From: Octopus sinensis
Taxonomy: Eukaryota
DNA length: 29,984 nucleotides
Direction of reading: 5' to 3'
NCBI RefSeq assembly: GCF_006345805.1
Contig: NW_021834052.1
Span: forward strand, 1-29,984
Shown here: positions 5,434 through 29,984 of the stretch, one piece after another
Layout of the letters: the number at the start of each line of letters is the position of its first letter
Numbering within the stretch: the stretch's first letter is position 1
The notes under the pieces: model-generated
Told to the model about the DNA's origin: nothing
Seen by the model: only the letters and a program-made list of their open reading frames with translations
The model's database searches: none
Position numbers and translations under genes: made by a program

Positions 5434-6142
5434 GTCTGACATAATAAATAATTGATTATTTATTGTCACCGTTCGCTGAATGGACCACGCCGTTGAGTAG
5501 ACCGACAACTTTTTATTAAAATAAAAATGTAATTTTTATGAAATAGATGACAATCGAATTATTTTAAGTTAATAGATAATATTATGTCACAGTCCGATAA
5601 AGAAACACGCCGTTAATGAAACGCCAACATCAAATTGACAAAAAATCATATCGAAAAAAAGATAAATTAATACAAATCGTCATTGGAAATGATTAATTAG
5701 TTATAAATTTTAATAAAATCCGTTTTTTAAAGTTTAAATAAAGAAGCGTGAAAGTATGCGGATAGTGAGACTAACTAATGAAATTCTCAGTATTATACAA
5801 AATATCAAAGAATAAAATTCAGAAATTAGAATTTCCTGATAGCATGAGCTGCCTCGACAGGTTCAGAATCAGGAAACTCTCTGAATCTGTTACATTCGAA
5901 AATGGAGTTGTATTCTACAATAGAACTGGTCTATAATTGCGTTTTTTGCGAGGTTGAAATGGAGCTGAAGCTCAAATTTGTTGAAGTTAAAATTTATTTC
6001 AATATAATTTAGGCGGAACATAATCTTAATCACTTTGGACGGGACCGCTTATTTTCATAGCTAAGAAGATTGATTTGTAGGTACAAGGTCAAGTGGAGAG
6101 GTTGTATTTTAATTATTTTCTTAATTAGATTTAACCAAAGTA

Positions 6143-7154
6143 CAGTATAACCTCCATTTGGGGCATCAATTTTGAAAAATTGCCCCAAAAATAGAGGTTT
6201 CCCCAAAAATGGAGGTCTGAAATTTTCTTTATTTTTATAAAAATTTTAATAGTTTTAGCATATTTTTCATTAATTTATAAATAAATAAAGTATTTTTAAG
6301 AACATTTAAACATGTTTTCCACTAATTTTATTGATAATTAGAGTATTTTTCAAGTAGAAAAAATTTTTTATTCTATTACACGAAAATAATCTGTTATTTT
6401 GTTTCCTGTTGCAGATTTCTTCATATGTATGCCCAATAACATATCAAGCGAAGAAACATCGGAAGAGTTTTTCTCTCCACTAATTGTCTTAAATGACAAC
6501 ATATGTCTTTTCTTAAATTTTTCCAACCAGCCATTGGACCCTTTGAACGCCGAATAATTCAACATCCTTGCTACTTTGGAAGCAATATTTTTTAAAAGAG
6601 GACCGGACACAGGAATAAATTCTTCCCTTGTCTTGGTGAAAGCCTCAAAAACAATTTTATCCAATTTTTGGGATAAAGTATGAGGAGAGCGTTGAATATT
6701 TCTGGGAAAATCTGTTTGAACAGCCCCAGTATTAAAAAAATTGAGATAATTTTTTTTAATACGTGACACAGCGCCTAAAAACTTACATTAATAAAAAACC
6801 TTTACTAATTTTGTACTTATCTACAATATCTCGTTCAGTAAGATGTTTATTTTCACTTAATTCCTTGGCAATTTTGATCTTTAACTCAAGACTAAGCTTA
6901 CGAGCCATAACAACAAGAATACAAAAATTACACGAGGCTTCCAAATGAAATTTTATATAATTAATTTTAATTTTAATAGCAAATATGTATATAAATTAAA
7001 AATCCTGTGCCCCACTTAGAGGTTCCGGTAATTTCTAAATTTGGAAATTACCGCATAAAAATTATATCCTTTTCAAACTACCCCAAAAATAGAGGTTTCC
7101 CCAAAAATAGAGGTTCCCCAAGCCAGAGGTCTGCCCCAAATGGAGGTTATACTG
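6143..7154 (-). mobile_element. Internally deleted pogo/Tigger element
   Basis: Perfect 23-bp TIRs CAGTATAACCTCCATTTGGGGCA with TA duplication (6141-6142, 7155-7156). Subterminal ccccaaaaat(a/g)gagg repeats near both ends. Removing it restores the integrase frame NQSIKRW. Confidence 0.93.
6368..6908 (-). CDS. Spliced 171-aa truncated Tigger transposase: HTH_psq plus CENP-B HTH, no DDE domain
   Basis: Exon 1 6908-6800 (MARKLSLELKIKIA...YKISK), 25-nt GT-AG intron 6799-6775, exon 2 GAVSRIKKN...PVSGPLLK...FKGSNGWLEKFKKRH...ISGE...KITDYF; open throughout. Confidence 0.7.
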
Positions 7155-7366
7155 TATAAAGCGATGGATCTCATCTACTAGCGCCTCAAATGAATTTTTT
7201 GGAAGATACGTTGCATGCATTAAGGATATTGTTTTCGACTACAACAATATAGTGCACTCGACGACGAAGATAGTCCCTTTCTATGGAAAATCCAGTGAAT
7301 ATTGAGAATGACAAAATGGAAGGCGTAATATATTATGCAGGAAATTTAAGTTATTACATCTTTTTT

Positions 7367-7922: not shown

Positions 7923-10900
7923 GGGGATGAAGAAAATAATACACGTTGTTGTTGTTGTGGTGTAATTTTTTTCAATTTATCTGTTATTTTTCATATCTTT
8001 TGTATAATTTAATACATTATCGAGTTGTCTTAGTTGTTACTATTTCTTTCGTCGGTATTTCTGTTATCTTTCTTAATACTTTTTTCCTATTTTTACATGT
8101 CATCCCTTTTCCACGATCCATTACCATGTGGTAAATGCAGTAAAATTAACTGCCGCAAAAACGGCATCTACTGCGCCAAATGCCATGCTTACTTCCATAT
8201 TGGATGTCTCAAGATTTCGAAGAAATCTGCTTCCAGCATCCCAATATGGCACTGTAACTCTTGCCTGGCAGCTTCCTCATTCCACGACACACCCACATTG
8301 TTTGAGAGTTCCCATGATCAATCTCCCAATATACTAACTTCATCGAACGCAATACTATCTTATCTATCAAGATATCGTCATTCGAGAAGCATCCCTATCC
8401 GTTTACCGAAACCAGCTCGTCCAGCAGCTGCGGAGGCCTTGTCTCATCTGATATCCAGAGCTATGTCCTCAAACAGGGACGAGGATTGGGCAAAAGCGTT
8501 CTACTTCCCCTTTTTCGGACTTGGCCTGACCCGTGGAGATAAATTGCCCGGGAATTTTACTTTCAAACTTAAAAGATCTATTTCTTCTTACCTCCCCTTT
8601 TCCATCGACACATTAATATCTCAGGAAAGCCACTCACTGTCAAAACCAAGACTAAACCACAACGAAAACCTACGCAAGAGAGTACGTTCCAAGTTAATGT
8701 CGGGCGACTTCTCGGCCGCCTTGAAAATAATTTCCTCAGACGATAAAGTTGCGAGGGTTGACGAACAAACATTACAGTCCCTCCTAGCAAAACATCCCAC
8801 TCCATCTTCTCCTACAACAGTACCAACACCAAGATCATGATTTTGTGCATGTGATAAAGACGAAGGGTTGAGAGCCCTGAAGTCTTTTCGCCCTAGTAGC
8901 AGCGGTGGAATCGATGGCCTCCGTCCAAGTCATATCATGGATCTGGTCTCCCCTTTAGCTTCCGCAGCCGGAGAACGTCTTTTGACGGATATTTGTGGTC
9001 TAATGAACGCATTCCTCGAAGGGTCTCTGTCTGATTACCCACGCTCCCTTTTTCTCTCGGGTAACCTGACCGCGCTGAATAAAAAGGACGGTGGAATCCG
9101 TCCCATATCCGTCGGTAATGTTTTCAGGAGACTGGCGGCTAAGATCGCTTGCGCCAGGTCTTCACATCTGTTTCCGAAAATTTTCCATAACATACAGATG
9201 GGTGTCGGTGTTAAAGGTGGCTGCGAAGCCACTGTCCACGCCGTGAGTGATTTTACAGAGTTTTCACACTCGGCTTATAACGACTGTATTCTTGCTAAAT
9301 TGGACATGAAAAATGCTTTTAATTGCATCGATCGCTCATACTTCCTTAAAGAATGCAGCAAACATAACATTCCATTACTCCCGATGGCCAGCATGTGCTA
9401 CGGTTGCACACCTGAACTAATGATAGACGGACACACGATCTTGTCCTCCTCTGGGGTCCAACAAGGTGACCCCCTTGGTCCATTACTCTTCTCCATGCGC
9501 GTTAACCCAACAGCACACGCCGTAAAATCACCGCTCAACGTTTGGTATCTGGATGACATTACTATTGCTCACCAAGTCATCTTGGATATCGAATCAATCG
9601 CTGTAAGTCTGAACAAAATTGGATTACAGTTGAACCCTTCAAAGTGTGAGATCATAAACCTCAACGCCAACGAGGAAGATTTCGCGACTATAGTGGAAAA
9701 ATATCACTCAGTCTTACCGGGTGGTATTATAACCAGGAAAGGGTCGCTTGAAGTCTTAGGATCTCCCATTTCTCTGAAGGAATCGAGAAAATACTGTCCG
9801 GAAAATTATCCACTTTTGAGTTTATGTCAAGCAGGCTATCCGTCCTGGACGCTCACGAAGGGTTTTTCTTGTTGAAAAACTTCATATCACTCCCCAAGCT
9901 ACAACACGTTCTCCGGTCTGCCCCCTGCTTTATAAACCCTGAACTTCTCAAAGAACTGGAAACAGGGCTGAAACACAGTGCCGAAAATCTCTGCAACATT
10001 CGTTTTGACGAAGCCTCGTGGACCCAAGCCACGCTTCCAATACGATTTGGAGGCATTGGTCTCCGCTCCCCAGCAGATATTGCATTACCCGCTTTCCTCT
10101 CTTCTCGATTGTCGTGTGACTCACTGGTGGTTGCTGTTCTCCCCCTTTCCACTGAACGTAACGCATCCTCCTGGTATCAGATGGCAATCGAAATTTGGTC
10201 GAACAAAGGCCTCAAGACACCTGCTAACTCATTCTCACAGAGATGTTGGGACGACCTGTACTTTATGTCAATTTACCACCACTTGGAAAAGGTCTCTGAT
10301 CAATCTCGACTTGCATGCCTTAGAAGCGCTTCACAAAAACAATCCGGAGCGTGGCTCAATGCATGTCCTATCCCTTCAGTCGGAAACAAACTGGACGACG
10401 AGACATTGCGAATTGCAATCTCCTTACGCCTTTGCATGAAGATCTGTCGTCAGCACCGCTGTAGTTGCGGGGCTTCCGTTGACGAATTCGGACGGCACGC
10501 TCTCTCATGCAGACGCAGTGCAGGACGGTTTCCAAGACATCATGCAATGAACCTAATTGTCAAGAACGCTTTGCATGCAGCTGGTTTCCCGGCACAGCTG
10601 GAGCCTCCTGGTCTCATCCGCACAGACGGAAAAAGGCCTGATGGGGTAACAATTTTCCCGTACACCAACGGGAAGTGCCTTGTCTGGGACTGCGCCTGCA
10701 CCGACACCTTCTCAGAGACAAACCTGATCGCCTCAGCCTCCTCTCCAGGATATGCTTCACAGAACTACGAAAAAATTAAAAAATTAAAATATTCAGAGCT
10801 CAAGGACAGGTTCATAGTGCAACCGATTATTGTGGATTCATCTGGAGTCTTCGGTCCGGATTCAATCTCTTTCATTAGGAAACTTGGATCCCTGATCTCG

Positions 10901-11037
10901 GCTCAGACGAAAGATAGGAGACCGAATGGCTGATCCAACGCCTTTCAACGACCGTTGTCAGGGGCAATAGCCACGCTATCCTTTCTGCTCTTAAGCAACC
11001 TTAATTAAATTATATTTTCTTTTATTTCGTTTTCAAT
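7923..11037 (+). mobile_element. Near full-length CRE-like non-LTR retrotransposon (PHD finger, RT, restriction-like endonuclease)
   Basis: Domain order and motifs as in the ORF entry. Candidate 18-bp TSD TAATAA(G/A)TTTTATTTTTT at 7905-7922 and 11038-11055 (low complexity, so boundaries are less certain). Confidence 0.87.
8097..11004 (+). pseudogene. Single PHD-RT-RLE ORF broken by one in-frame stop (8838-8840) and frameshifts near 9770 and 10918
   Basis: PHD CGKC..CAKC...FHIGC...WHCNSC. RT GGIDGLRP, KKDGGIRPISVG, LDMKNAFN, GVQQGDPLGPLLF, WYLDD, GGIGL. CCHC CSCG..GRHALSC, then RH, RPDG, WD, EKIKKLKY. C-terminal WLIQRLSTTVVRGNSHAI in the shifted frame, stop 11002-11004. Confidence 0.9.
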
Positions 11038-11121: not shown

Positions 11122-11164
11122 TGACCTCGCAGCCATGGACGGCTCGCAGCCCTGGACTGTAACA
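11122..11164 (-). repeat. Probable Ginger-type TIR (TGTTACAGTCC... on the minus strand) abutting the satellite
   Basis: TGT terminus with two tandem ctcgcagcc(a/c)tggac units, the same architecture as the 41-bp TIR of the satellite-resident element. Confidence 0.65.
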
Positions 11165-12432
11165 TATTATTTATTTTGGGAGGTCCCTAGATGTGAGCAT
11201 ATGTGGGTACTTGAGATTATGTAATAAATTGCGTTATATATTATTAATTTTGGGAAGTCCCTAGATGTGAGCATATGCGGGTACTTGAGATTATGCAATA
11301 AATTACGTAATATATTATGCAATTTTGTGAGGTCCCTAAATGTGAGCATATGGGGGTACTTGAGATTATGTAATAAATTCCGTAATATATTATGCAATTT
11401 TGGGAGGTCCCTAGATGTGTACATATGCGGGTACTTGAGATTATGTAATAAATTCCGTAATATATTATGCAATTTTGGGAGATCCCTAGATGTGAGGATA
11501 TGGGGGTATTTGAGATTATGCAATATATTGCGTAATATATTATGCAATTTTGGGATGTCCCTAAATGTGAGCATTTGTGGGTACTTGAGATTATGCAATA
11601 AATTGCGCAATATATTATGCAATTTTGGGATGTCCCTAGATGTGTAAATATGCAGGTACTTGAGATTATGCAATATATTGCGTATTATATTATGCAATTT
11701 TGGGATGTCCCTAAATGTGAGCATATGTGGATACTTGAGATTATGCAATAAATTACGTAATATATTATGCAATTTTGGGAGGTCCCTAGATGTGTACATA
11801 TTCGGGTACTTGAGATTATGCAATAAATTACGTAATATATTATGCAATTTTATGAGGTCCCTAAATGTGAGCATATGGGGGTACTTGAGATTATGTAATA
11901 AATTGCGTAATATATTATGCAATTTTGGGAGGTCCCTAGATGTGTACATATTCGGGTACTTGAAATTATGCAATAAATTACGTAATATTTTATGCAATTT
12001 TGGGAGCTCCCTAGATGTGAGCATATGCAGGTACTTGAGATTATGCAATAAATTGCGTAATATATTATGCAATTTTGGCAGGTCCCTAGATGTGTACATA
12101 TGCGGGTACTTGAGATAATGCAATAAATTACGTAATATATTATGCAATTTTGTGAGGTCCCTAGATGTGAGCATATGGGGGTACTTGAGATTATGTAATA
12201 AATTCCGTAATATATTATGCAATTTTGGGAGATCCCTAGATGTGAGCATATGTGGATACTTGAGATTATGCAATATTACGTAATTATATGCAATTTTGGG
12301 AGGTCCCTAGATGTTGCATATGTGGGTACTTGAGATTATGCAATAAATTTCGTAATATATTATGCAATTTTGGGAAGTCCCTAGATGTGTACATATTCGG
12401 GTACTTGAGATTATGCAATAAATTACGTAATA
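11165..12432. repeat. 75-bp satellite, block 1 (array edge; first monomers diverged)
   Basis: Consensus ttttgggaggtccctagatgtgagcatatgtgggtacttgagattatgcaataaattacgtaatatattatgcaa; period 75 (gtacttgag at 11281 and 11356). Confidence 0.97.
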
Positions 12433-13880
12433 TGTCGCGACCCACGCTGGCGACCATCCCACGCTGGCGACCAGAGCGACCTTCATTGTTGACAAGATTG
12501 ACAGGGCGACCTACATAGTTTGACATTAATTACTGACTAAAGATAATTGCTAAAAAATCAAAAAACTTAACATTTTTTATCTCTATTCATAGTAACTATT
12601 TCGTAATTCGAACTAAATGTTTGTTAGTAAAGACAACAAACCATTAATCTGTATTTAGACATTATATTTTTTACTTTTCCCTTTTCTTCATATGGGGATT
12701 CAAATCTGTGCAGCTTCAATGACGGATTCGCCCCACAATCTTTTATTATTCGTTTCTAAAAATAAATACATCGTAAATTTACCATTAAGTTCATCTTCGA
12801 CAAACGATGCCTCGTTATTTTCATATAAATTATAAATAAGATTATAACCTGGTATTTTATGAATCACAGTGTTAATTCCAGAAATACCCTTAAACTTTTG
12901 AAGGGGGTCTCATTGATCGCCGAGTGGTGTGTCGTATTATAGGAAAAAGTTACTTTGTCTAAAAATTGTTTCCAATTTTTACGTATTTTTGGTTTTTGAA
13001 TTCCAACCCGTTGTCCGTTTGCAAGATCTGACAATATCCAATTTGATAAAACAATTTTTGGAATTTATTCACCACTTCTTCAATTAAATTTTAAGTCTTA
13101 CCAGAAGCAGTTTTATTTTTTAGAGATTTGCAGACAACAAATTTGCTGTGGATGTCAATAATTGTCAGTATCCAATTACATCCATCGTTAAACTCCTTAT
13201 ATCTTCTAACATCAATAATATCCGCCTGGAATCTTTCATTGGGTTTTCCTGCAGTTACATGGTATTTAGAATCCGACACCTAGGTATATTTTTTTTAAAT
13301 ACTTTCAATGGTAGGGCAAATTTACAAATTTCGCAGTATTTTATAATTTGTTCGATGATTGGACGTTTTACAGTGAAATAGAATTCACTGCACTTTTTCT
13401 GAAGCTTTCGTATTCCCCAGTGGGATTCTTGGTGAATGGCGAATGCTAGTGTCCTCATCTCCATTTCATTGTCCAGATAAATGACCAATTTGTGTTTTTG
13501 GTTATTCTCGTCCTTTAGATAGAGACTATGAGTTAGGAGTTGCAAATATACAGATCATTAATAATGATAAATTGAGTCGCTTTTTTCATGCTAACATCTT
13601 TTGAGAGAAACCATAATTTTTTTTCTAAAATGACGCTAAACCATTTCTTAAAATGAATTTTTTCCGGTTTAAATTAAATATCAAATTCAGAGAATCCTGC
13701 TGGCTGTCATGCGTGGCAACAGCTGTTCCCTCCGTCTCGCTGGGAGAATTTATTAGTTTGTTGACTTTACTTAGTAGTTTGAATATCAAATTTAAATTAA
13801 ATCACCTGTCAAACTGAAGGTCACAACCTGTCAAGCTGATGGTCGCCAGCGTGGGATGGTCGCCAGCGTGGGTCGCGACA
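12433..13880 (-). mobile_element. Ginger2/TDD-like element copy 1 (class A, plus a 94-bp insert)
   Basis: 41-bp TIRs TGTCGCGACCCACGCTGGCGACCATCCCACGCTGGCGACCA with TAATA on both sides; HQESHWG...CEIC, FQADIID and QTDNGLEF motifs. Confidence 0.92.
13688..13781 (+). mobile_element. 94-bp 5'-truncated insertion from a CRE-like retrotransposon 3' end
   Basis: Absent from copies 2-7; flanked by AATATCAAATT (13677-13687, 13782-13792); translates QRILLAVMRGNSCSLRLAGRIY*. Confidence 0.8.
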
Positions 13881-16800
13881 TAATATATTATGCAATTTTA
13901 TGAGGTCCCTAAATGTGAGCATATGGGGGTCCTTGAGATTATGTAATAAATTGCGTATTATATTATGCAATTTTGGGAGGTCCCTAGATGTGAGCATATG
14001 TGGGTACTTGAGATTATGCAATAAATTACGTAATATATTATGCAATTTTGGGAGGTCCCTAGATGTGAGCATATGTGGGTACTTGAGATTATGCAATAAA
14101 TTACGTAATATATTATGCAATTTGGGAGGTCTCTAGATGTGTACATATTCGGGTACTTGAGATTATGCAATAAATTACGTAATATATTATGCAATTTTGG
14201 GAGCTCCCTAGATGTGAGCATATTTGGGTATGTAATAAATTACGTAATATATTATGCAATTTTGGGAGGTCCCTAGATGTGAGCATATGTGGGTACTTGA
14301 AATTATGCAATAAATTACGTAATATTTTATGCAATTTTGGGAGCTCCCTAGATGTGTACATATGCGGGTACTTGAGATAATGCAATAAATTACGTAATAT
14401 ATTATGCAATTTTGTGATGTCCCTAGATGTGAGCATATGGGGGTACTTGAGATTATGCAATAAATTACGTAATATATTATGCAATTTTGGGAGGTCCCTA
14501 GATGTGAGCATATGGGGGTACTTGAGATTATGCAATAAATTACGTAATATTATGCAATTTTGGGAGCTCCCTAGATGTGAGCATATGTGGGTACTTGAGA
14601 TTATGTAATAAATTACGTAATATATTATGCAATTTTGGGAGGTCCCTAGATGTGAGCATATGGGGGTACTTGAGATTATGCAATAAATTACGTAATATTT
14701 TATGCAATTTTGGGAGGTCCCTAAATGTGAGCATATGGGGGTACTTGAGATTATGCAATAAATTACGTAATATATTATGCAATTTTGGGAGGTCCCTAGA
14801 TGTGTACATATGCGGTACTTGAGATAATGCAATAAATTACGTAATATTTTATGCAATTTTGGGAGGTCCCTAGATGTGAGCATATGGGGGTACTTGAGAT
14901 TATGCAATAAATTACGTAATATATTATGCAATTTTGGGAGGTCCCTAGATGTGAGCATATGGGGGTACTTGAGATTATGTAATAAATTGCGTAATATATT
15001 ATGCAATTTTGGGAGGTCCCTAGATGTGAGCATATGTGGGTACTTGAGATTATGCAATAAATTACGTAATATATTATGCAATTTTGGGAGGTCCCTAGAT
15101 GTGAGGATATGTGGGTACTTGAGATTATGCAATAAATTACGTAATATATTATGCAATTTGGGAGGTCTCTAGATGTGAGCATATGTGGGTACTTGAGATT
15201 ATGCAATAAATTACGTAATATTTTATGCAATTTTGGGAGCTCCCTAGATGTGAGCATATGGGGGTACTTGAGATTATGTAATAAATTCCCTAATATATTA
15301 TGCAATTTTGTGAGGTCCCTAAATGTGAGCATATGGGGGTACTTGAGATTATGTAATAATTTCCGTAATATATTATGCAATTTTGCGAGGTCCCTAGATG
15401 TGAGCATATGTGGGTATTTGAGATTATGCAATAAATTACGTAATATATTATGCAATTTTGGGAGGTCCCTAGATGTGAGCATATGTGGGTACTTGAGATT
15501 ATGCAATAAATTACGTAATATATTATGCAATTTTGGCAGGTCCCTAGATGTGTACATATGCGGGTATGTAATAAATTACGTAATATATTATGCAATTTTG
15601 GGAGGTCCCTAGATGTGAGCATATGTGGGTACTTGAAATTATGCAATAAATTACGTAATATTTTATGCAATTTTGGGAGCTCCCTAGATGTGAGCATATG
15701 CAGGTACTTGAGATTATGCAATAAATTGCGTAATATATTATGCAATTTTGGCAGGTCCCTAGATGTGTACATATGCGGGTACTTGAGATAATGCAATAAA
15801 TTACGTAATATATTATGCAATTTTGTGAGGTCCCTAGATGTGAGCATATGTGGGTACTTGAGATTATGCAATAAATTACGTAATATTTTATGCAATTTTG
15901 GGAGCTCCCTAGATGTGAGCATATGTGGGTACTTGAGATTATGCAATAAATTACGTAATATATTATGCAATTTTGGGAGCTCCCTAGATGTGAGCATATG
16001 CAGGTACTTGAGATTATGCAATATATTGCGTAATATATTATGCAATTTTGGGAGGTCCCTAAATATGAGAAAATGGGGGTACTTGAGATTATGCAATAAA
16101 TTACGTAATATGTTATGCAATTTTGGGAGGTCCCTAGATGTGTACATATGCGGGTACTTGAGATTATGCAATAAATTACGTAATATGTTATGCAATTTTT
16201 GGAGGTCCCTAGATGTGTACATATGCGGGTACTTGAGATTATGCAATAAATTACGTAATATATTATGCAATTTTGGAAGGTCCCTAGATGTGTACATATG
16301 CGAGTACTTGAGATTATGCAATAAATTACGTAATATATTATGCAATTTTGGCAGGTCCCTAGATGTGTACATATGCGGGTACCTTGAGATTATGCAATAA
16401 ATTACGTAATATGTTATGCAATTTTGTGAGGTCCCTAATTGTGAGCATATGGGGGTACTTGAGATTATGTAATAAATTCCGTAATATATTATGCAATTTT
16501 GGGAGGTCCCTAGATGTGTACATATGCGGGTACTTGAGATTATGTAATAAATTCCGTAATATATTATGCAATTTTGGGAGATCCCTAGATGTGAGGATAT
16601 GGGGGTATTTGAGATTATGCAATATATTGCGTAATATATTATGCAATTTTGGGATGTCCCTAAATGTGAGCATTTGTGGGTACTTGAGATTATGCAATAA
16701 ATTGCGCAATATATTATGCAATTTTGGGATGTCCCTAGATGTGTAAATATGCAGGTACTTGAGATTATGCAATATATTGCGTATTATATTATGCAATTTT

Positions 16801-17076
16801 GGGATGTCCCTAAATGTGAGCATATGTGGATACTTGAGATTATGCAATAAATTACGTAATATATTATGCAATTTTGGGAGGTCCCTAGATGTGTGCATAT
16901 GTGGGTACTTGAGATTATGCAATAAATTTCGTAATATATTATGCAATTTTGGGAAGTCCCTAGATGTGTACATATTCGGGTACTTGAGATTATGCAATAA
17001 ATTACGTAATATATTATGCAATTTTGGGAGCTCCCTAGATGTGAGCATATTTGGGTATGCAATAAATTACGTAATA
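13881..17076. repeat. 75-bp satellite, block 2
   Basis: About 43 monomers, including 65-bp deletion variants. Confidence 0.97.
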
Positions 17077-18412
17077 TGTCGCGACCCACGCTGGCGACCA
17101 TCCCACGCTGGCGACCAGAGCGACCTTCATTGTTGACAAGATTGACAGGGCGACCTACATAGTTTGACATTAATTACTGACTAAAGATAATTGCTAAAAA
17201 ATCAAAAAACTTAACATTTTTTATCTCTATTCATAGTAACTATTTCGTAATTCGAACTAAATGTTTGTTAGTAAAGACAACAAACCATTAATCTGTATTT
17301 AGACATTATATTTTTTACTTTTCCCTTTTCTTCATATGGGGATTCAAATCTGTGCAGCTTCAATGACGGATTCGCCCCACAATCTTTTATTATTCGTTTC
17401 TAAAAATAAATACATCGTAAATTTACCATTAAGTTCATCTTCGACAAACGATGCCTCGTTATTTTCATATAAATTATAAATAAGATTATAACCTGGTATT
17501 TTATGAATCACAGTGTTAATTCCAGAAATACCCTTAAACTTTTGAAGGGGGTCTCATTGATCGCCGAGTGGTGTGTCGTATATAGGAAAAAGTTACTTTG
17601 TCTAAAAATGTTTCCAATTTTTACGTATTTTTGGTTTTTGAATTCCAACCCGTTGTCCGTTTGCAAGATCTGACAATATCCAATTTGATAAAACAATTTT
17701 TGGAATTTATTCACCACTTCTTCAATTAAATTTTAAGTCTTACCAGAAGCAGTTTTATTTTTTAGAGATTTGCAGACAACAAATTTGCTGTGGATGTCAA
17801 TAATTGTCAGTATCCAATTACATCCATCGTTAAACTCCTTATATCTTCTAACATCAATAATATCCGCCTGGAATCTTTCATTGGGTTTTCCTGCAGTTAC
17901 ATGGTATTTAGAATCCGACACCTAGGTATATTTTTTTTAAATACTTTCAATGGTAGGGCAAATTTACAAATTTCGCAGTATTTTATAATTTGTTCGATGA
18001 TTGGACGTTTTACAGTGAAATAAATTCACTGCACTTTTTCTGAAGCTTTCGTATTCCCCAGTGGGATTCTTGGTGAATGGCGAATGCTAGTGTCCTCATC
18101 TCCATTTCATTGTCCAGATAAATGACCAATTTGTGTTTTTGGTTATTCTCGTCCTTTAGATAGAGACTATGAGTTAGGAGTTGCAAATATCAGATCATTA
18201 ATAATGATAATTGAGTCGCTTTTTTCATGCTAACATCTTTTGAGAGAAACATAATTTTTTTTCTAAAATGACGCTAAACCATTTCTTAAATGAATTTTTT
18301 CCGGTTTAAATTAAATATCAAATTTAAATTAAATCACCTGTCAAACTGAAGGTCACAACCTGTCAAGCTGATGGTCGCCAGCGTGGGATGGTCGCCAGCG
18401 TGGGTCGCGACA
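17077..18412 (-). mobile_element. Ginger-like copy 2 (class A)
   Basis: Same TIRs and TAATA flanks; nearly identical to copy 1 without the insert. Confidence 0.92.
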
Positions 18413-20175
18413 TAATATATTATGCAATTTTATGAGGTCCCTAATGTGAGCATATGGGGGTACTTGATATTATGTAATAAATTGCGTTTATATTATGCAA
18501 TTTTGGGAGGTCCCTAGATGTGAGCATATGTGGGTACTTGAGATTATGCAAAATTACGTAATATTATGCATTTTGGGAGCTCCCTAGATGTGAGCATATT
18601 CGGGTATTTAATATATTCCGTAATATATTATGCAATTTTGGGAGCTCCCTAGATGTTTACATATGCGGGACTTGAGATTATGCGATAAACTACGTAATAT
18701 ATTATGCAATTTTGGGTGCTCCCTAGATGTGTACATATGCGGGTACTTGAGATTATGCAATAATTACGTAATGTATTATGCAATTTTGGAGGTCCCTAGA
18801 TGTGTACATATGCGGGTACTTGAGATTATGCAATAAATTACGTAATATGTTATGCAATTTTGTGAGGTCCCTAGATGTGAGCATATGTGGTACTTGAGGA
18901 GATTATGCAATAAATTACGTAATATATTATGCAATTTTGGGAGCTCCCTAGATGTGAGGATATGCAGGTACTTGAGATTATGCAATAAATTACTTAATAT
19001 ATTATGCAATTTTGGGAGGTCCCTAAATGTGAGATATAGGGGTACTTGAGATTATGTAATAAATTGCGTAATATATATGCAATTTTGGGAGGTCCCTAGA
19101 TGTGTACATATTCGGGTACTTGAGATTATGCAATAAATTACGTAATATATTATGCAATTTTATGAGGTCCCTTAATGTGAGCATATAGGGGTACTTGAGA
19201 TTATGTAATAAATTGCGTAATATATTATGCAATTTTGGGAGGTCCCTAGATGTGTACATATTCGGGTACTTGAGATTATGCAATAAATTACGTAATATAT
19301 TATGCAATTTTATGAGGTCCCTAAATGTGAGCATATGGGGGTACTTGAGATTATGTAATAAATTGCGTAATATATTATGCAATTTTGTGAGGTCCCTAGA
19401 TGTGAGCATATGTGGGTACTTGAGGAGATTATGCAATAAATTACGTAATATATTATGCAATTTTGGGAGCTCCCTAGATGTGAGGATATGCAGGTACTTG
19501 AGATTATGCAATAAATTACTTAATATATTATGCAATTTTGGGAGGTCCCTAAATGTGAGCATATGGGGGTACTTGAGATTATGTAATAAATTGCGTTATA
19601 TTATGCAATTTTGGGAGGTCCCTAGATGTGTACATATGCGGTACTTGAGATTATGCAATAAATTACGTAATAATTATGCAATTTTATGAGGTCCCTAAAT
19701 GTGAGCATATGGGGGTACTTGAGATTATGTAATAAATTGCGATTATTTATTGCAATTTGGGAGGTCCCTAGATGTGTACATTTCGGGTACTTGAGATTAT
19801 GCAATAATTACGTAATATATTATGCAATTTTATGAGGTCCCTAAATGTGAGCATATGGGGGTACTTGAGATTGTAATAAATTGCGTAATATATTATGCAA
19901 TTTTGGGAGGTCCCAGATGTGTACATGCGGGTACTTGAGATTATGCAATAAATTACATAATATATTATGCAATTTTGGGAGCTCCCTAGATGGAGCATAT
20001 TCGGGTATTTAATAAATTCCGTAATATATTATGCAATTTTGGGAGCTCCCTAGATGTGTACATATGCGGGTACTTGAGATTATGCGATAAACTACGTAAT
20101 ATATTATGCAATTTTGGGTGCTCCCTAGATGTGTACATATTCGGGTACTTGAGATTATGCAATAATTACGTAATA
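18413..20175. repeat. 75-bp satellite, block 3
   Basis: About 24 monomers, with 78-bp (gaggaga) variants and many 1-bp indels. Confidence 0.96.
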
Positions 20176-21507
20176 TGTCGCGACCCACGCTGGCGACCAT
20201 CCCCGCTGGCGACCAGAGCGACTTCATTGTTGAAAGATTGACAGGGCGAACTACATAGTTTGACATTAATTACTGACTAAAGATAATTGCTAAAAATCAA
20301 AAACTTAACATTTTTTATCTCTATTCATAGTAACTATTTCGTAATTCGAACTAAATGTTTGTTAGTAAAGACAACAAACCATTATCTGTATTTAGACATT
20401 ATATTTTTTACTTTTCCCTTTTCTTCATATGGGGATTCAAATCTGTGCAGCTTCAATGACGGATTCGCCCCACAATCTTTTATTATTCGTTTCTAAAAAT
20501 AAATACATCGTAAATTTACCATTAAGTTCATCTTCGACAAACGATGCCTCGTTATTTTCATATAAATTATAAATAAGATTATAACCTGGTATTTTATGAA
20601 TCACAGTGTTAATTCCAGAAATACCCTTAAACTTTTGAAGGGGGTCTCATTGATCGCCGAGTGGTGTGTCGTATTATAGGAAAAAGTTACTTTGTCTAAA
20701 AATTGTTTCCAATTTTTACGTATTTTTGGTTTTTGAATTCCAACCCGTTGTCCGTTTGCAAGATCTGACAATATCCAATTTGATAAAACAATTTTTGGAA
20801 TTTATTCACCACTTCTTCAATTAAATTTTAAGTCTTACCAGAAGCAGTTTTATTTTTTAGAGATTTGCAGACAACAAATTTGCTGTGGATGTCAATAATT
20901 GTCAGTATCCAATTACATCCATCGTTAAACTCCTTATATCTTCTAACATCAATAATATCCGCCTGGAATCTTTCATTGGGTTTTCCTGCAGTTACATGGT
21001 AATTAGAATCCGACACCTAGGTATATTTTTTTTAAATACTTTCAATGGTAGGGCAAATTTACAAATTTCGCAGTATTTTATAATTTGTTCGATGATTGGA
21101 CGTTTTACAGTGAAATAGAATTCACTGCACTTTTTCTGAAGCTTTCGTATTCCCCAGTGGGATTCTTGTGAATGGCGAATGCTAGTGTCCTCATCTCCAT
21201 TTCATTGTCCAGATAAATGACCAATTTGTGTTTTTGGTTATTCTCGTCCTTTAGATAGAGACTATGAGTTAGGAGTTGCAATATACAGATCATTAATAAT
21301 GATAAATTGAGTCGCTTTTTTCATGCTAACATCTTTTGAGAGAAACCATAATTTTTTTTCTAAAAATGACGCTAAACCATTTCTTAAAATGAATTTTTTC
21401 CGGTTTAAATTAAATATCAATTAAATTAAATCACCGTCAACTGAAGGTCACAACCTGTCAAGCTGATGGTCGCCAGCGTGGGATGGTCGCCAGCGTGGGT
21501 CGCGACA
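20176..21507 (-). mobile_element. Ginger-like copy 3 (class A)
   Basis: TIRs (one internal variant), TAATA flanks and the same internal sequence. Confidence 0.92.
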
Positions 21508-22242
21508 TAATATATTATGCAATTTTATGAGGTCCCTAAATGTGAGCATATGGGGGTACTTGAGATTATGTAATAAATTGCGTATTATATTATGCAATTT
21601 TGGGAGGTCCCTAGATGTGAGCATATGTGGGTACTTGAGATTATGCAATAAATTACGTAATATATTATGCAATTTTGGGAGGTCTCTAGATGTGTACATA
21701 TTCGGGTACTTGAGATTATGCAATAAATTACGTAATATATTATGCAATTTTGGGAGCTCCCTAGATGTGAGCATATTTGGGTATGTAATAAATTACGTAA
21801 TATATTATGCAATTTTGGGAGCTCCCTAGATGTGAGCATATTTGGGTATGTAATAAATTACGTAATATATTATGCAATTTTGGGAGGTCCCTAGATGTGA
21901 GCATATGTGGGTACTTGAAATTATGCAATAAATTACGTAATATTTTATGCAATTTTGGGAGCTCCCTAGATGTGTACATATGCGGGTACTTGAGATAATG
22001 CAATAAATTACGTAATATATTATGCAATTTTGTGAGGTCCCTTGATGTGAGCATATGGGGGTACTTGAGATTATGCAATAAATTACGTAATATATTATGC
22101 ATTTTGGGATGGTCCCTAGATGTGAGCATATGGGGGTACTTGAGATTATGTTAATAAATTGCGTATATATTATGCAATTTTGGGAGGTCCCTAGATGTGA
22201 GCATATGTTGGTACTTGAGATTATGCAATAAATTACGTAATA
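21508..22242. repeat. 75-bp satellite, block 4
   Basis: About 10 monomers between the inverted copies 3 and 4. Confidence 0.96.
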
Positions 22243-23575
22243 TGTCGCGACCCACGCTGGCGACCATCCCACGCTGGCGACCATCAGCTTGACAGGTTGT
22301 GACCTCAGTTTGACAGGTGATTTAATTTAAATTTGATATTTAATTTAAACCGAAAAATTCATTTTAAGAAATGGTTTAGCGTCATTTTAGAAAAAAATTA
22401 TGGTTTCTCTCAAAAGATGTTAGCATGAAAAAAGCGACTCAATTTATCATTATTAATGATCTGTATATTTGCAACTCCTAACTCATAGTCTCTATCTAAA
22501 GGACGAGAATAACCAAAACACAAATTGGTCATTTATCTGGACAATGAAATGGAGATGAGGACACTAGCATTCGCCATCACCAAGAATCCCACTGGGGAAT
22601 ACGAAAGCTTCAGAAAAAGTGCAGTGAATTCTATTTCACTGTAAAACGTCCAATCATCGAACAAATTATAAAATACTGCGAAATTTGTAAATTTGCCCTA
22701 CCATTGAAAGTATTTAAAAATAATATACCTAGGTGTCGGATTCTAAATACCATGTAACTGCAGGAAAACCCAATGAAAGATTCCAGGCGGATATTATTGA
22801 TGTTAGAAGATATAAGGAGTTTAACGATGGATGTAATTGGATACTGACAATTATTGACATCCACAGCAAATTTGTTGTCTGCAAATCTCTAAAAAATAAA
22901 ACTGCTTCTGGTAAGACTTAAAATTTAATTGAAGAAGTGGTGAATAAATTCCAAAAATTGTTTTATCAAATTGGATATTGTCAGATCTTGCAAACGGACA
23001 ACGGGTTGGAATTCAAAAACCAAAAATACGTAAAAATTGGAAACAATTTTAGACAAAGTAACTTTTTCCTATAATACGACACACCACTCGGCGATCAATG
23101 AGACCCCCTTCAAATTTAAGGGTATTTCTGGAATTAACACTGTGATTCATAAAATACCAGGTTATAATCTTATTTATAATTTATATGAAAATAACGAGGC
23201 ATCGTTTGTCGAAGATGAACTTAATGGTAATTTACGATGTATTTATTTTTAGAAACGAATAATAAAAGATTGTGGGGCGAATCCGTCATTGAAGCTGCAC
23301 AGATTTGAATCCCCATATGAAGAAAAGGGAAAAGTAAAAAATATAATGTCTAAATACAGATTAATGGTTTGTTGTCTTTACTAACAAACATTTAGTTCGA
23401 ATTACGAAATAGTTACTATGAATAGAGATAAAAAATGTTAAGTTTTTTGATTTTTTAGCAATTATCTTTAGTCAGTAATTAATGTCAAACTATGTAGGTC
23501 GCCCTGTCAATCTTGTCAACAATGAAGGTCGCTCTGGTCGCCAGCGTGGGATGGTCGCCAGCGTGGGTCGCGACA
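22243..23575 (+). mobile_element. Ginger-like copy 4 (class A, opposite orientation)
   Basis: Reverse complement of copies 1-3 with TAATA flanks; introns 22463-22488, 22710-22732 and 22911-22934 restore the integrase frame. Confidence 0.92.
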
Positions 23576-23643
23576 TAATATATTATGCAATTTTATGAGG
23601 TCCCTAAATGTGAGCATATGGGGGTACTTGAGATTATGTAATA
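23576..23643. repeat. 68-bp partial satellite monomer spacer, repeated at 24971-25038 and 26449-26517
   Basis: taata-tattatgcaattttatgagg...gagattatg-taata, virtually identical in all three places. Confidence 0.92.
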
Positions 23644-24970
23644 TGTCGCGACCCACGCTGGCGACCATCCCACGCTGGCGACCATCAGTTTGACAGGTTA
23701 TGACCTTCAGCTTGACAGGTGATTAGTTTGATATTTAATTTAAACCGGAAAAAATTTATTTTAAGAAATAGTTTAGCGTCATTTTAGAAAAAAAATTATG
23801 GTTTCTCTCAAAAGATGTTAGCATGAAAAAAGCGACTTAATTTATCATTATTAATGATCGGTATATTTGCGACTCCTAACTCATAGTCTTTATCTAAAGG
23901 ACGAGAATAACCAAAAACACAAATTGGTCATTTGTCTGGACAATGAAATCGAGATGAAAACACTAGCATGCGCCATTCACCAAGAATCCCACTGGGGAAT
24001 ACGAAAGCTTCAGAAAAAGTGCAGTGAATTCTATTTCACTGTAAAACGTCCAATCATCGAACAATTATAAAATACTGCGAAATTTGTAAATTTGCCCTAC
24101 CATTGAAAGTATTTAAAAAAAATAACCTAGGTGTCGATTCTAATACCATGTAACTGCAGAAAACCCAATGAAAGATTCCAGGCGGATATTATTGATGTTA
24201 GAAGATATAAGGAGTTTAACGATGGATGTAATTGGATACTGACAATTATTGACATCCACAGCAAATTTGTTGTCTGCAAATCTCTAAAAAATAAAACTGC
24301 TTCTGGTAAGACTTAAAATTTAATTGAAGAAGTGGTGAATAAATTCCAAAAATTGTTTTATCAAATTGGATTTTGTCAATCTTGCAAACGGACAACGGGT
24401 TGGAATTCAAAAACCAAAAATACGTAAAAATTGGAAACAATTTTTGACAAAGTAACTTTTTCCTATAATACGACACACCACTCGGCGATCAATGAGACCA
24501 CCCTTCAAAAGTTTAAGGGTATTTTTGGAATTAACACACTGTGATCATAAATACCAGGTTATAATCTTATTTATAATTTATATGAAAATAACGAGGCATC
24601 GTTGTCGAAGATGAACTTAATGTAAAATTTACGATGTATTTATTTTTAGAAACGAATAATAAAAGATTGTGGGGCGAATCCGTCATTGAAGCTGCACAGA
24701 TTTAATCCCATATGAAGAAAAGGGAAAAGTAAAAAATATAATGTCTAAATACAGATTAATGGTTTGTTGTCTTTACTAACAAACATTTAGTTCGAATTAC
24801 GAAATAGTTACTATGAATAGAGATAAAAAATGTTAAGTTTTTTGATTTTTTAGCAATTATCTTTAGTCAGTAATTAATGTCAAACTATGTAGGTCGCCCT
24901 GTCAATCTTGTCAACAATGAAGGTCGCTCTGGTCGCCAGCGTGGGATGGTCGCCAGCGTGGGTCGCGACA
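23644..24970 (+). mobile_element. Ginger-like copy 5 (B-left / A-right chimera)
   Basis: Left diagnostic sites match copy 7 up to ~23975; class A sites and the A deletion from ~24070. Confidence 0.88.
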
Positions 24971-25038
24971 TAATATATTATGCAATTTTATGAGGTCCCT
25001 AAATGTGAGCATATGGGGGTACTTGAGATTATGTAATA

Positions 25039-26448
25039 TGTCGCGACCCACGCTGGCGACCATCCACGCTGGCGACCATCAGTTTGACAGTTATGACCTT
25101 CAGCTTGACAGGTGATTATTTGATATTTAATTTAAACCGGAAAAAATTTATTTTTAGAAATAGTTTAGCGTCATTTTAGAAAAAATTATGGGTTCTCTCA
25201 AAAGATGTTAGCATGAAAAAAGCGACTTAATTTATCATTATTAATGATCGGTATATTTGCGACTCCTAACTCATAGTCTTTATCTAAAGGACGAGAATAA
25301 CCAAAAACCACAATTGGTCATTTCTGTCGGACAATGAAATCGAGATGAAACACTAGCATGCGCATTCACCAAGAATCCCACTGGGGAATACGAAAGCTTC
25401 AGAAAAAGTGCAGTGAATCTATTTCACTGTAAAACGTCCAATCATCGAACAAATTATAAAACTGCGAATTTGTAAATTTGCCTTACCATTGAAAGTATTT
25501 AAAAAAATATACCTAGATGTCGTCTGCAAATCTTTAAAAAATAAAACTGCTTCTGGTAAGACTTGAAATTTAATTGAAGAAATGGTGAATAAATTCCAAA
25601 AATTGTTTTATCAAATTGGATATTGTCAGATCTTGCAAACGGACAACGGGTTGGAATTCAAAAACCAACTTATGGCTTAACTATGCGAGAAATAAATTTG
25701 AAATAAATTAGGGTGTAATTGAGCGCTTTAATTAAATATTGACACGTGGTATGGCAAAACTGATGGATAAAGAAGGAACTAAAAATTGGAAACAATACGG
25801 CGGACATATTACGAACAAATTTCGACCTCTTTAAAAATCAAATTATACAACATGCTACTGAAACCGGTCTTATTGTACAATTTCTCTACATAAAAAAATA
25901 CGTAAAAATTGGAAACAATTTTTGGACAAAGTAACTTTTTCCTATAATACGACACACTACTCGGCGATCAATGAGACCCCCTTCAAAAGTTTAGGGGTAT
26001 TTCTGGAATTAACACTGTGATTCATGAAATACCAGGTTATAATCTTATTTATAATTTAGATGAAAATAACGAGGCATCGTTTGTCGAAGATGAACTTAAT
26101 GGTAAATTTACGATGTATTTATTTTTAGAAACGAATAATAAAAGATTGTGGGGCGAATCCGTCATTGAAGCTGCACAGATTTGAATCCCCATATGAAGAA
26201 AAGGGAAAAGTAAAAAATATAATGTCTAAATACAGATTAATGGTTTGTTGTCTTTACTAACAAACATTTAGTTCGAATACGAAATAGTTACTATGAATAG
26301 AGATAAAAAATGTTAAGTTTTTTGTTTTTAGCAATTATCTTTAGTCAGTAATTAATGTCAAACTATGTAGGTCGCCCTGTCAATCTTGTCAACAATGAAG
26401 GTCGCTCTGGTCGCCAGCGTGGGATGGTCGCCAGCGTGGGTCGCGACA
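25039..26448 (+). mobile_element. Ginger-like copy 6 (class B with an A-type right end)
   Basis: Carries the B deletion and the B-specific ~230-bp segment; B alleles to 26059, A alleles from 26101. Confidence 0.88.
25797..25902 (+). mobile_element. ~105-bp insertion with a 17-bp TSD inside class B (also at 27284-27387)
   Basis: TAAAAATTGGAAACAAT at 25780-25796 and 25903-25919; A-rich 3' end. Confidence 0.72.
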
Positions 26449-26517
26449 TAATATATTATGCAATTTTATGAGGTCCCTAAATGTGAGCATATTGGGGGTA
26501 CTTGAGATTATGTAATA

Positions 26518-27916
26518 TGTCGCGACCCACGCTGGCGACCATCCCACGCTGGCGACCATCAGTTTGACAGGTTATGACCTTCAGCTTGACAGGTGATTAG
26601 TTTGATATTTAATTTAAACCGGAAAAAATTTATTTTAAGAAATAGTTTAGCGTCATTTTAGAAAAAAAATTATGGTTTCTCTCAAAAGATGTTAGCATGA
26701 AAAAAGCGACTTAATTTATCATTATTAATGATCGGTATATTTGCGACTCCTAACTCATAGTCTTTATCTAAAGGACGAGAATAAAAAACACAAATTGGTC
26801 ATTTGTCTGGACAATGAAATCGAGATTGAAAACACTAGCATGCGCCATTCACCAAGAATCCCACTGGGGAATACGAAAGCTTCAGAAAAAGTGCAGTGAA
26901 TTCTATTTCACTGTAAAACGTCCAATCATCGAACAAATTATAAAAGACTGCGAAATTTGTAAATTTGCCTTACCATTGAAAGTATTTAAAAAAATATACC
27001 TAGATGTCGTCTGCAAATCTTTAAAAAATAAAACTGCTTCTGGTAAGACTTGAAATTTAATTGAAGAAGTGGTGAATAAATTCCAAAAATTGTTTTATCA
27101 AATTGGATATTGTCAGATCTTGCAAACGGACAACGGGTTGGAATTCAAAAACCAACTTATGGCTTAACTATGCGAGAAATAAATTTGAAATAAATTAGGG
27201 TGTAATTGAGCGCTTTAATTAAATATTGACACGTGGTATGGCAAAACTGATGGATAAAGAAGGAACTAAAAATTGGAAACAATACGGCGGACATATTACG
27301 AACAATTTCGACTCTTTAAAAATCAAATTATACAACATGCTACTGAAACCGGTCTTATTGTACAATTTCTCTACATAAAAAAATACGTAAAAATTGGAAA
27401 CAATTTTTGACAAAGTAACTTTTTCCTATAATACGACACACTATCGGCGATCAATGAGACCTTCCCAAAAGTTTAGGGGTATTTCTGGAATTAACACTGT
27501 GATTCATGAAATACCAGGTTATAATCTTATTTATAATTTAGATGAAAATAACGAGGCATCGTTTGTCGAAGATGAACTTAATAGTAAATTTACGATGTAT
27601 TTATTTTTAGAAACGAATAATAAAAGATTGTGGGACGAATCCGTCATTGAAGCTACACAGATTTGAATCCCCATATTAAGAAAAGGGAAAGGTAAAAAAT
27701 ATAATGTCTAAATACAGATTAATGGTTAGTTGTCTTTCGTAACAAACATTTAGTTCGAATTACGAAATAGTAAAAATGTTAAGTTTTTTGATTTTTTAGC
27801 AATTATCTTTAGTCAGTAATTAGTGTCAAACTATGTAGGTCGTCCTGTCAATCTTGTCAACAATGAAGGTTGCTCTGGTCGCCAGCGTGGGATGGTCGCC
27901 AGCGTGGGTCGCGACA
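26518..27916 (+). mobile_element. Ginger-like copy 7 (class B)
   Basis: TIRs; flanks gattatg-TAATA and TAATA-aattacg define a second insertion site; has GVIERFN but lacks FQADIID. Confidence 0.92.
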
Positions 27917-29984
27917 TAATAAATTACGTATTTTATTATGCAATTTTGGGAGGTCCCTAGATGTGAGCATATGTGGGTACTTGAGATTATGCAATAAATT
28001 ACGTAATATATTATGCAATTTTGGGAGGTCCCTAGATGTGAGCATATGTGGGTACTTGAGATTATGCAATAAATTACGTAATATATTATGCAATTTGGGA
28101 GGTCTCTAGATGTGTACATATCGGGTACTTGAGATAATGCAATAAATTACGTAATATATTATGCAATTTTGGGAGCTCCCTAGATGTGAGCATATTTGGG
28201 TATGTAATAATTACGTAATATATTATGCAATTTTGGGAGGTCCCTAGATGTGAGCATATGTGGGTACTTGAAATTATGCAATAATTACGTAATATTTTAT
28301 GCAATTTTGGGATTCCCTAGATGTGTACATATCGGGTACTTGAGATTATGCAATAAATTACATAATATATTATGCAATTTTGGGAGCTCCCTAATGTGAG
28401 CATATTGGGTACTTGAGATTATGTAATAATTGCGTAATATATATGCAATTTGGGAGGTCCCTAGATGTGTACATATGCGGTACTTGAGATTATGCGATAA
28501 CTACGTAATATATTATGCAATTTTGGGAGCTCCCTAGATGTGTACATATGCGGGTACTTGAGATTATGCAAAATTACGTAATGTATTATGCAATTTTGGA
28601 GGTCCCTAATGTGTACATATGCCGGTACTTGAGATTATGCAATAAATTACGTAATATATTATGCAATTTTGGGATGTCCCTAAATGTGAGCATATTGGGG
28701 TACTTGAGATTATACAATAAATTACGTAATATATTATGCAATTTTGGGAGGTCCCTAGATGTGAGCATATTGGGGTACTTGAGATTATACAATAAATTAC
28801 GTAATATATTATGCAATTTTGGGAGGTCCCTAAATGTGAGCATATGTGGGTACTTGAGATTATGTAATAAATTGCGTAATATATTATGCAATTTTGGGAG
28901 GTCCCTAGATGTGAGCATATGTGGGTACTTGAGATTATGCAATAAATTACGTAATATATTATGCAATTTTGGGAGGTCCCTAGATGTGAGCATATGAGGG
29001 TACTTGAGATTATGCAATAAATTACGTAATATATTATGCAATTTGGGAGGTCTCTAGATGTGAGCATATGTGGGTACTTGAGATTATGCAATAAATTACG
29101 TAATATTTTATGCAATTTTGGGAGCTCCCTAGATGTGAGCATATGGGGGTACTTGAGATTATGTAATAAATTCCCTAATATATTATGCAATTTTGTGAGG
29201 TCCCTAAATGTGAGCATATGGGGGTACTTGAGATTATGTAATAATTTCCGTAATATATTATGCAATTTTGCGAGGTCCCTAGATGTGAGCATATGTGGGT
29301 ATTTGAGATTATGCAATAAATTACGTAATAAATTATGCAATTTTGGGAGGTCCCTAGATGTGAGCATATGTGGTACTTGAGATTATGCAATAAATACGTA
29401 ATTATTATGCAATTTTGGCAGGTCCCTAGATGTTAGTACATATGCGGGTATGTAATAAATTACGTAATATATGCAATTTTGGGAGGTCCCTAGATGTGAG
29501 CATATGTGGGTACTTGAAATTATGCAATAAATTACGTAATATTTTATGCAATTTTGGAGCTCCCTAGATGTGAGCATATGCAGTACTTGAGATTATGCAA
29601 TAATTGCGTATATATTATGCAATTTTGGGGGTCCCTAGATGTGTACATATGCGGGTACTTGAGATAATGCAATAAATTACGTAATATATTATGCAATTTT
29701 GTGAGGTCCCTAGATGTGAGCATATGTGGGTACTTGAGGAGATTATGCAATAAATTACGTAATATTATGCAATTTTGGGAGCTCCCTAGATGTGAGGATA
29801 TGCAGGTACTTGAGATTATGCAATAAATTACTTAATATATTATGCAATTTTGGGAGGTCCCTAATGTGAGCATATGGGGGTACTTGAGATTATGTAATAA
29901 ATTGCGTAATATATTATGCAATTTTGGAGGTCCCTAGATGTGTACATATCGGGTACTTGAGATTATGCAATAAATTACGTAATA
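27917..29984. repeat. 75-bp satellite, block 5 (runs off the window)
   Basis: About 28 monomers. Confidence 0.97.

Follow-up and report, generated by a model that had tools for sequence, protein, structure and literature searches.

Ginger2 transposons, as far as the available text of two reports describes them (PMC2836005, PMC10045372), have TGTNR ends and an AT-rich target, lack the YPYY and GPY/F motifs, and produce target-site duplications (TSDs) of 4 bp in animals and of 5 bp in the Dictyostelium elements TDD-4/5. The portion available of Llorens et al. 2012 places KRBA2 in GINGER2 as well (PMC3575427). Here we analyse a contig of 29,984 nucleotides from the Octopus sinensis assembly GCF_006345805.1 (contig NW_021834052.1; C10523 in assembly G000, the assembly that contains it), the whole of which we call the window. 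Seven copies of a Ginger-like element interrupt a 75-bp satellite in it, and a preliminary description, made from the window sequence alone, took them for a satellite-resident transposon inserted at equivalent positions of the repeat by a sequence- or satellite-targeted integrase. We find instead, with a probability of about 0.82, that they are non-autonomous copies of a dispersed Ginger2-like transposon which makes a 5-bp TSD at a palindromic, TAATA/TATTA-centred AT motif, and that two insertions were multiplied in the window by array duplication and unequal crossover.

Target sites across the assembly

Exact matches to the terminal inverted repeat (TIR) in G000 number 84 for the 41-mer, 12 of them in the window, and 117 for an 18-mer; backwards-sequence controls of both gave 0 matches in G000. 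The TIR flanks allowed 120 termini to be located, which make up 69 elements. Among the 51 elements with two ends, 50 have an exact 5-bp TSD, and repeats of 4, 6 or 7 bp match in 0/51. Once six elements with duplicate flanks had been merged, about 57 independent sites were left, 52 of them outside the satellite and five within it: on our reading the 11 satellite elements reduce to two sites in the window, two on contig C3523 and one, duplicated, on C8750. The copies differ from the full-length copy by 0.2-9%, mostly by 2-5%.

These sites share a sequence. TAATA/TATTA occurs at 33 of the 52 outside sites, compared with 0.57% of flanking 5-mers (P ~1e-60), and the excess persists against a background of AT-only 5-mers, where the two make up 3.5% (P ~2e-42). 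Base composition is thereby ruled out as the source of TAATA use, which the preliminary description had named as an alternative. More broadly, NAWTN is found at 48/52 outside sites, and the flanks show a T-W-T-T tendency.

A weight matrix was built from 51 outside sites (C6252 was excluded, its end being apparently displaced) and applied to the satellite monomer. It gives a weight of 203 to site 2, 181 to site 3 and 54 to site 1, and 4.2 to the next position. Of the five satellite insertions, one lies at site 1 and two each at sites 2 and 3, so a matrix derived entirely from outside sites puts at the top precisely those positions that are used: the "equivalent positions" of the preliminary description are the monomer's matches to the motif. 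Site 3 is a TATTA five bases beyond site 1, out of the 12-bp register, and its use at C3523:8885 and on C8750 rules out register-specific targeting of a 12-bp subrepeat.

The element does not belong to a class of repeat-targeted transposons, as 5/57 independent sites are in the satellite, and it cannot be called satellite-resident: the deletion subfamily seen in the window as type A also occurs at non-satellite sites, 0.9-1.2% diverged. Of the earlier suggestion that the integrase is sequence- or satellite-targeted, the first half stands and the second does not. A TIR search of the genome places most copies outside the satellite, as it would for an element without satellite targeting, but their TSDs are not varied. 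The window copies would have been mobilised in trans by a DD35E integrase from full-length copies, through cut-and-paste transposition with a 5-bp stagger.

Two insertions and seven copies in the window

The satellite array runs from 11159 to 29984 and consists of 75-bp monomers with three 12-bp subrepeats and with TAATA/TATTA at three positions per monomer. All seven copies (1327-1448 bp) lie inside it, as first described, each interrupting the array, and TAATA is the junction 5-mer at 14/14 ends. The 41-bp TIR, a short terminus followed by copies of a 17-bp repeat (1-3 repeats per end genome-wide), had been ascribed to all of them; it is exact in five, and is reduced to 28 bp in copy 3 and 27 bp in copy 6 by single-base deletions. 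Every copy carries internal deletions. Integrase remnants are present, for example an rve match at 22751-22909 in copy 4, and the tree described below shows that they are not of the gypsy type to which they had been likened.

Copies 1-4 are of type A. Copy 1 (12433-13880, minus strand) is a deletion derivative at site 1, copies 2 (17077-18412, minus strand) and 3 (20176-21507, minus strand) are site-1 duplicates, and copy 4 (22243-23575, plus strand) is a pure type A element at site 1, inverted with respect to the other three. They are 1-8 substitutions apart, with a single substitution between copies 1 and 2 and only 1-2 between copies 1, 2 and 4. Copy 7 (26518-27916, plus strand), also a deletion derivative, occupies site 2 and is purely of type B; types A and B are about 3% apart. 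Copy 1 alone has an insert of about 105 bp (~13688-13792) flanked by an 11-bp direct repeat, and type B copies have about 110 bp extra between 16-bp direct repeats in the integrase gene (~25785-25925 and 27270-27410).

Copies 5 (23644-24970, plus strand) and 6 (25039-26448, plus strand) are chimeras, B on the left and A on the right, each with a single switch. In copy 5, 12 diagnostic columns of type B are followed by A, with one column matching neither type, and the switch falls between alignment columns 441 and 545; in copy 6, the B columns, one of them matching neither type, are followed by 10 of type A, and the switch falls between columns 1286 and 1380. The large deletions of both agree with single-switch chimerism. 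Their flanks behave in the same way: the two sites initially recognised are seen in the left flanks, which read ATTACG for copies 1-4 and ATTATG for copies 5-7, but in copies 5 and 6 the left flank is of the site-2 type and the right flank of the site-1 type. Copies 4-7 are set apart by one and the same 68-bp satellite piece, leading from site 1 to site 2 (23576-23643, recurring at 24971-25038 and 26449-26517).

The sequence downstream is also shared. One monomer variant follows copies 1-6, and its empty form is found in only 5 among ~120 monomers. The empty sites already noted are indeed present, at 11833-11837 (plus strand; an empty site 1, with an empty site 2 63 bp downstream) and likewise at 19143-19147 and 19293-19297, and they have the same downstream variant as copies 1-6. 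Given the chimeras, the common downstream variant and the common spacer, two insertions and one inversion or re-insertion suffice, and the seven copies probably go back to a pair of insertions separated by 63 bp, in agreement with the earlier view that only two independent insertions are demonstrated and that the element was co-amplified with the array. A type A and a type B element would have landed in one monomer, at site 1 and site 2 respectively. Pairing out of register between the 97%-identical A and B would then have turned this A-spacer-B dimer into A-spacer-BA-spacer-BA-spacer-B, copies 5 and 6 being, we infer, the recombinants expected from unequal crossover within it. Copies 1-3 would be duplicates of A, and a single inversion of A would have come about through recombination between TIRs or through re-insertion.

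Were every window copy instead a separate insertion at an equivalent satellite position, the left flanks of copies 1-4 should be unlike, as in their monomer variants they are, and the inversion of copy 4 would follow readily. The same rare variant would, however, have had to be hit for each of copies 1-6, the near-identity of copies 1, 2 and 4 would be fortuitous, and the chimeric structure of copies 5 and 6 would have no place. We consider this largely refuted and hold it to be very improbable. That the multiplicity is an assembly or read artefact seems hardly more than a slim chance: the window is a complete 30-kb contig bearing homopolymer-type indels, which would suit such an origin, but copy 1 has its private insert, the crossover points of copies 5 and 6 are unlike, and the array segments between copies are not identical.

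The transposase gene and its predicted introns

An apparently unbroken copy, of the kind that the preliminary description had proposed to seek, is found at G000:C12469:171027-172808 (1,782 bp, TSD TACTA) and is the sole one in the family. Removal of eight GT-AG introns by predicted splicing yields a stop-free frame of 423 amino acids; the introns are, in order, 27, 26, 23, 24, 23, 26, 25 and 25 nt long. The predicted protein has catalytic residues D145, D206 and E242, in DD35E spacing, and an SH3-like tail with ESPY. Single exons match PF17921 (H2C2), PF00665 and PF13683, every score being below the curated cut-off, and the halves of Pfam rve that single exons match are contiguous.

Alignment to intronless relatives, the best full-length match among them being 31% over 396 columns, finds junctions 3, 4, 5 and 7 gap-free in the element and small gaps at junctions 2 and 8, junctions 1 and 6 being uninformative. 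Spliced alignment, which covered 15 sister stretches at 34-62% identity, recovers 7/8 of the intron positions in sister families, with codon and phase unchanged and the intron sequences unlike; some sister families have other intron positions, and two show none. A splice parser that makes no use of similarity gave a spurious ninth intron in the C12469 copy, mis-parsed the C8851 copy and returned noisy parses for CCT genes. Because of this unreliability the intron claims rest on the Pfam exon matches, the alignment to intronless relatives and the positions in sister families. On this sequence evidence the transposase gene is predicted to contain eight introns of 23-27 nt. For a natural 153-aa frame, a search for longer homologues, weak in itself, gave no match at 1e-5.

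The window retains part of this structure. Copy 4 has a predicted 26-nt intron at 22463-22488, homologous to intron 2 of the C12469 model, a predicted 23-nt intron 3 at 22710-22732 and, within the rve core, a predicted 24-nt intron 4 at 22911-22934, all on the plus strand. One of the intronless sister families (G000:C12602:200516-202754, also on C419) is a 2.2-kb TGT...ACA element with an open frame of 461 amino acids, 5-bp TSDs (ATATA, AAAAA) and many near-identical copies.

Placement among known systems

In a tree of 35 rows, the element groups with its sisters and with microsporidian integrases (92/96), and this branch unites with KRBA2-like proteins (100/99), leaving nine host long terminal repeat (LTR)-type integrases outside; the rows are a subset of the matches, and reference Ginger2, TDD, Ginger1 and Polinton sequences are not among them. 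In length-limited searches the intronless sister has as its closest named relatives stand-alone microsporidian integrases (Enteropsectra, Cucumispora and Dictyocoela), followed by KRBA2-like proteins. We conclude that the element is Ginger2-like and stands beside the KRBA2-like clade, with formal membership of Ginger2 being likely.

With Ginger2/TDD, as characterised in the available text of PMC2836005 and PMC10045372, it shares TGTNR termini (TGTCG here), TIRs, an integrase with H2C2 and DDE domains and no reverse transcriptase (RT). A motif search of the predicted protein for GPY/F and YPYY was negative, the target is AT-rich and palindromic, and the TSD is in the 4-or-5-bp range, all as in that group. 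Several features set it apart from the families which those texts list: its TSD is 5 bp on TAWTA with TWT flanks, unlike the 4 bp on RTATAY reported for animal Ginger2; it is 1.8 kb long with TIRs of 24-41 bp (exact over 27 bp in full-length copies and 41 bp in window copies), compared with 2.7-6.7 kb and 45-297 bp for the listed autonomous elements (the published TIR range being ~45-300 bp). Its eight predicted introns of 23-27 nt and its subclade with short microsporidian integrases, outside the KRBA2-like group, are further differences.

Integrases of the KRBA2/SCAND3 type (PMC3575427, in the portion available) are close by, given the grouping with KRBA2-like proteins and one Atlas neighbour named KRBA2-like, but the element has its own branch, 28-39% core identity and a shorter protein with the SH3-like tail. 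Intron-containing Ginger2-like integrases are also known from sesarmid nimaviruses, which the accessible part of PMC10871703 describes with a 46-bp TIR and an AT-motif target; those target (AT)n and mobilise viral genomes of 265-285 kb, in contrast to the 1.8 kb without viral genes seen here.

Ginger1 resembles the element in its TGT termini, strong target specificity and intron-containing transposase. Ginger1 identity is rejected nonetheless: its 4-bp CCGG/CCGT TSD, YPYY and GPY/F motifs and OTU/Ulp1 tails are not seen, and the TSD here is a 5-bp TAWTA. Polintons/Mavericks are large multi-gene elements with a 6-bp TSD, and the 5-bp TSD, length of 1.8 kb and one gene exclude that identity. Gypsy LTR retrotransposons have LTRs and, upstream of the integrase, RT and RNase H; a gypsy identity is excluded by inverted termini, the presence of an integrase only and a position outside the gypsy clade. 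In the literature covered, which leaves aside Repbase and most subscription papers, we found no account of this Ginger2-like family, of introns below 30 nt in a Ginger transposase or of cross-family Ginger dimers.

The satellite share of insertions

Several observations weigh against the reading proposed here. As the left flanks of copies 1-4 are unlike, exchange near the end or one more insertion at site 1 may have taken place, and the many 1-bp indels in copies 3 and 5-7 mean that the tandem block is possibly in part an assembly error. For 14 of the 52 outside sites only one end supplied the TSD, and intron 1 of the transposase model is predicted from the splice model alone. Finally, the satellite receives more insertions than its motif content predicts. 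By the weight matrix it is a 3.9-fold better target per base than flanking DNA, and it totals about 0.3 Mb (1,957 core matches at 156 bp per match). The element-bearing genome was put at ~98 Mb (49-260) from 49 carrier contigs, which total at least 12.3 Mb, scaled by a hand count that found 6/48 compact CCT and DEAD loci on carrier contigs. The satellite share is then 8.8% (5/57) compared with ~1.2% expected from the motif (P 0.0006); without the window it is 3/55 (P 0.03; 0.0008-0.5 over assumptions).

This excess could reflect a genuine second preference of the integrase, for the satellite in addition to the motif, for example through chromatin or protein tethering. Five of 57 sites in ~0.3 Mb of a ~100-Mb assembly would fit such a preference, and a sister Ginger family is also present in the C8750 array. 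Yet 91% of the sites are outside, and the window was picked for its insertions; the diverged C8750 subfamily enters the numerator and scarcely the denominator (two core matches in 8.8 kb), and satellites collapse in assemblies. Other arrays of the satellite hold inserts which we take, from their terminal sequences, to be Tc1/mariner-like and hAT-like, as well as a 215-bp insert and the sister Ginger, as a neutral refuge would. We therefore regard a secondary satellite preference as unlikely and retain motif-directed insertion followed by array duplication.

Other composites of this satellite were observed. At G000:C7755:14156-20122 the 215-bp insert occurs four times at ~2-kb spacing, another co-amplified unit. 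At G000:C8750:88520-108753 an 80% diverged satellite subfamily contains a 7.1-kb duplicated block with the Ginger2-like element analysed here and a hAT-like element, near which the sister Ginger is located. Further arrays with the satellite core, at spacings of 74 bp and ~87 bp, are on C499 and C1537.

Dimers with sister families

On four contigs (C12442, C4897, C9300 and C9733) the 3' end of the element is followed by TATTA and then by a complete TIR element of another family, three of the four partners having integrase homology. C8851 is probably a further dimer. By one fixed criterion, whose GC requirement C9733 failed, 4/58 TAWTA ends adjoin a sister terminus compared with 19/4503 local background half-sites (odds ratio 17, P 1.7e-4).

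Such dimers might form if the transpososome, in addition to recognising the motif, were drawn to the ends of resident sister elements, so that both members come to share one TSD. Beyond the enrichment, to which C9733 adds one more case, this would account for the TATTA on the far side of the partner (exact in three of the four, one mismatch in the fourth), for the restriction of all partners to the element's 3' end and for a G at a flank position where it is otherwise rare (4/86). The junction pattern has 48 matches, 22 of them on unplaced and 26 on chromosome-scale contigs, and about seven further junctions unite recurring termini of other families. There are, however, just 4-6 events for the Ginger2-like element, and of 16 unplaced junctions checked only three have element evidence on both sides and four on one side (0 and 1 in 15 chromosomal controls).

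Drosophila dimers, according to the available portion of McGurk and Barbash 2018 (PMC5932611), are explained by hot or tolerated sites that are hit twice, and as double insertion through site preference is thus known, re-use of such sites is our default reading; end-targeting is the bolder and the less likely one. The elements here resemble those tandem dimers in that site preference brings copies together and unequal exchange expands them, and differ from what that portion describes in two respects: what expands in the window is a pair of insertions at a distance of 63 bp within a satellite monomer, and the dimers found at one site elsewhere in G000 unite different families. At G000:C5849:2120-4130 three different Ginger-like elements stand end to end with TAATA at each junction.

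An apparent second eukaryote in the assembly

Copies of the element are confined to unplaced contigs: an exact search with the 41-mer and the 18-mer gave no TIR match on contigs C1-C30, which rules out residence on the host chromosomes. CCT genes occur in G000 as two full sets. Those of the first set are on chromosome-scale contigs and spread over kilobases; those of the second are on unplaced contigs (such as C1794, C8459, C8693, C8695, C8702 and C9076) and take up ~2 kb each. In the compact genes the gaps between successive matches are ~20-26 nt, and a rough, noisy intron parse peaks at 23-25 nt. Both compact CCT genes and the Ginger2-like element are on C1794 and C8459.

From the two CCT sets, the compact one lying on unplaced contigs of which some carry the element, we infer that the unplaced carrier contigs come from a second, co-assembled eukaryote of ~100 Mb with introns of ~20-30 nt, whose spliceosome would remove the eight transposase introns. 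According to the part of PMC13644364 available, introns this short are found in animals only in myxobolid myxozoans and a dicyemid, and also in ciliates and microsporidia.

Other elements in the window

Upstream of the array, a non-LTR retroelement with a PHD finger and RT (8034-11000) ends ~150 bp before the satellite, and fragments resembling it are nested in several transposon copies elsewhere. At 6141-7156 there is a pogo-like element with perfect 25-bp TIRs and a Tc5 helix-turn-helix domain, at 3634-5535 a non-LTR RT and at 387-950 a DDE_1 remnant. The stretch at 1200-2600, which has no Pfam match, we presume to be a hAT remnant.

Implications

The window is a clean example of how a short target motif and unequal crossover can build a transposon-satellite composite out of two insertions, without satellite targeting. 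The second apparent eukaryote, which would account for ~100 Mb of G000, bears on any finding from these contigs. The sister transposases of the family range, within one genome, from intronless to eight predicted introns of 23-27 nt at positions partly held in common, and lend themselves to the study of how introns are gained and lost near the smallest size that a spliceosome can handle.

A wider proposal, which we consider doubtful, is that a lineage of compact Ginger elements with a 5-bp TSD and an affinity to microsporidian integrases diversified in a parasite with ultra-short introns, that its families gained different sets of ~21-31-nt introns, and that its transposases home on sister ends to give cross-family chains around common TAATA duplications. 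End-targeted insertion is a property of the bacterial element IS911, and cross-family end-homing, if true, would be its eukaryotic counterpart; it would also be a way for a transposon to spare genes in a dense genome.

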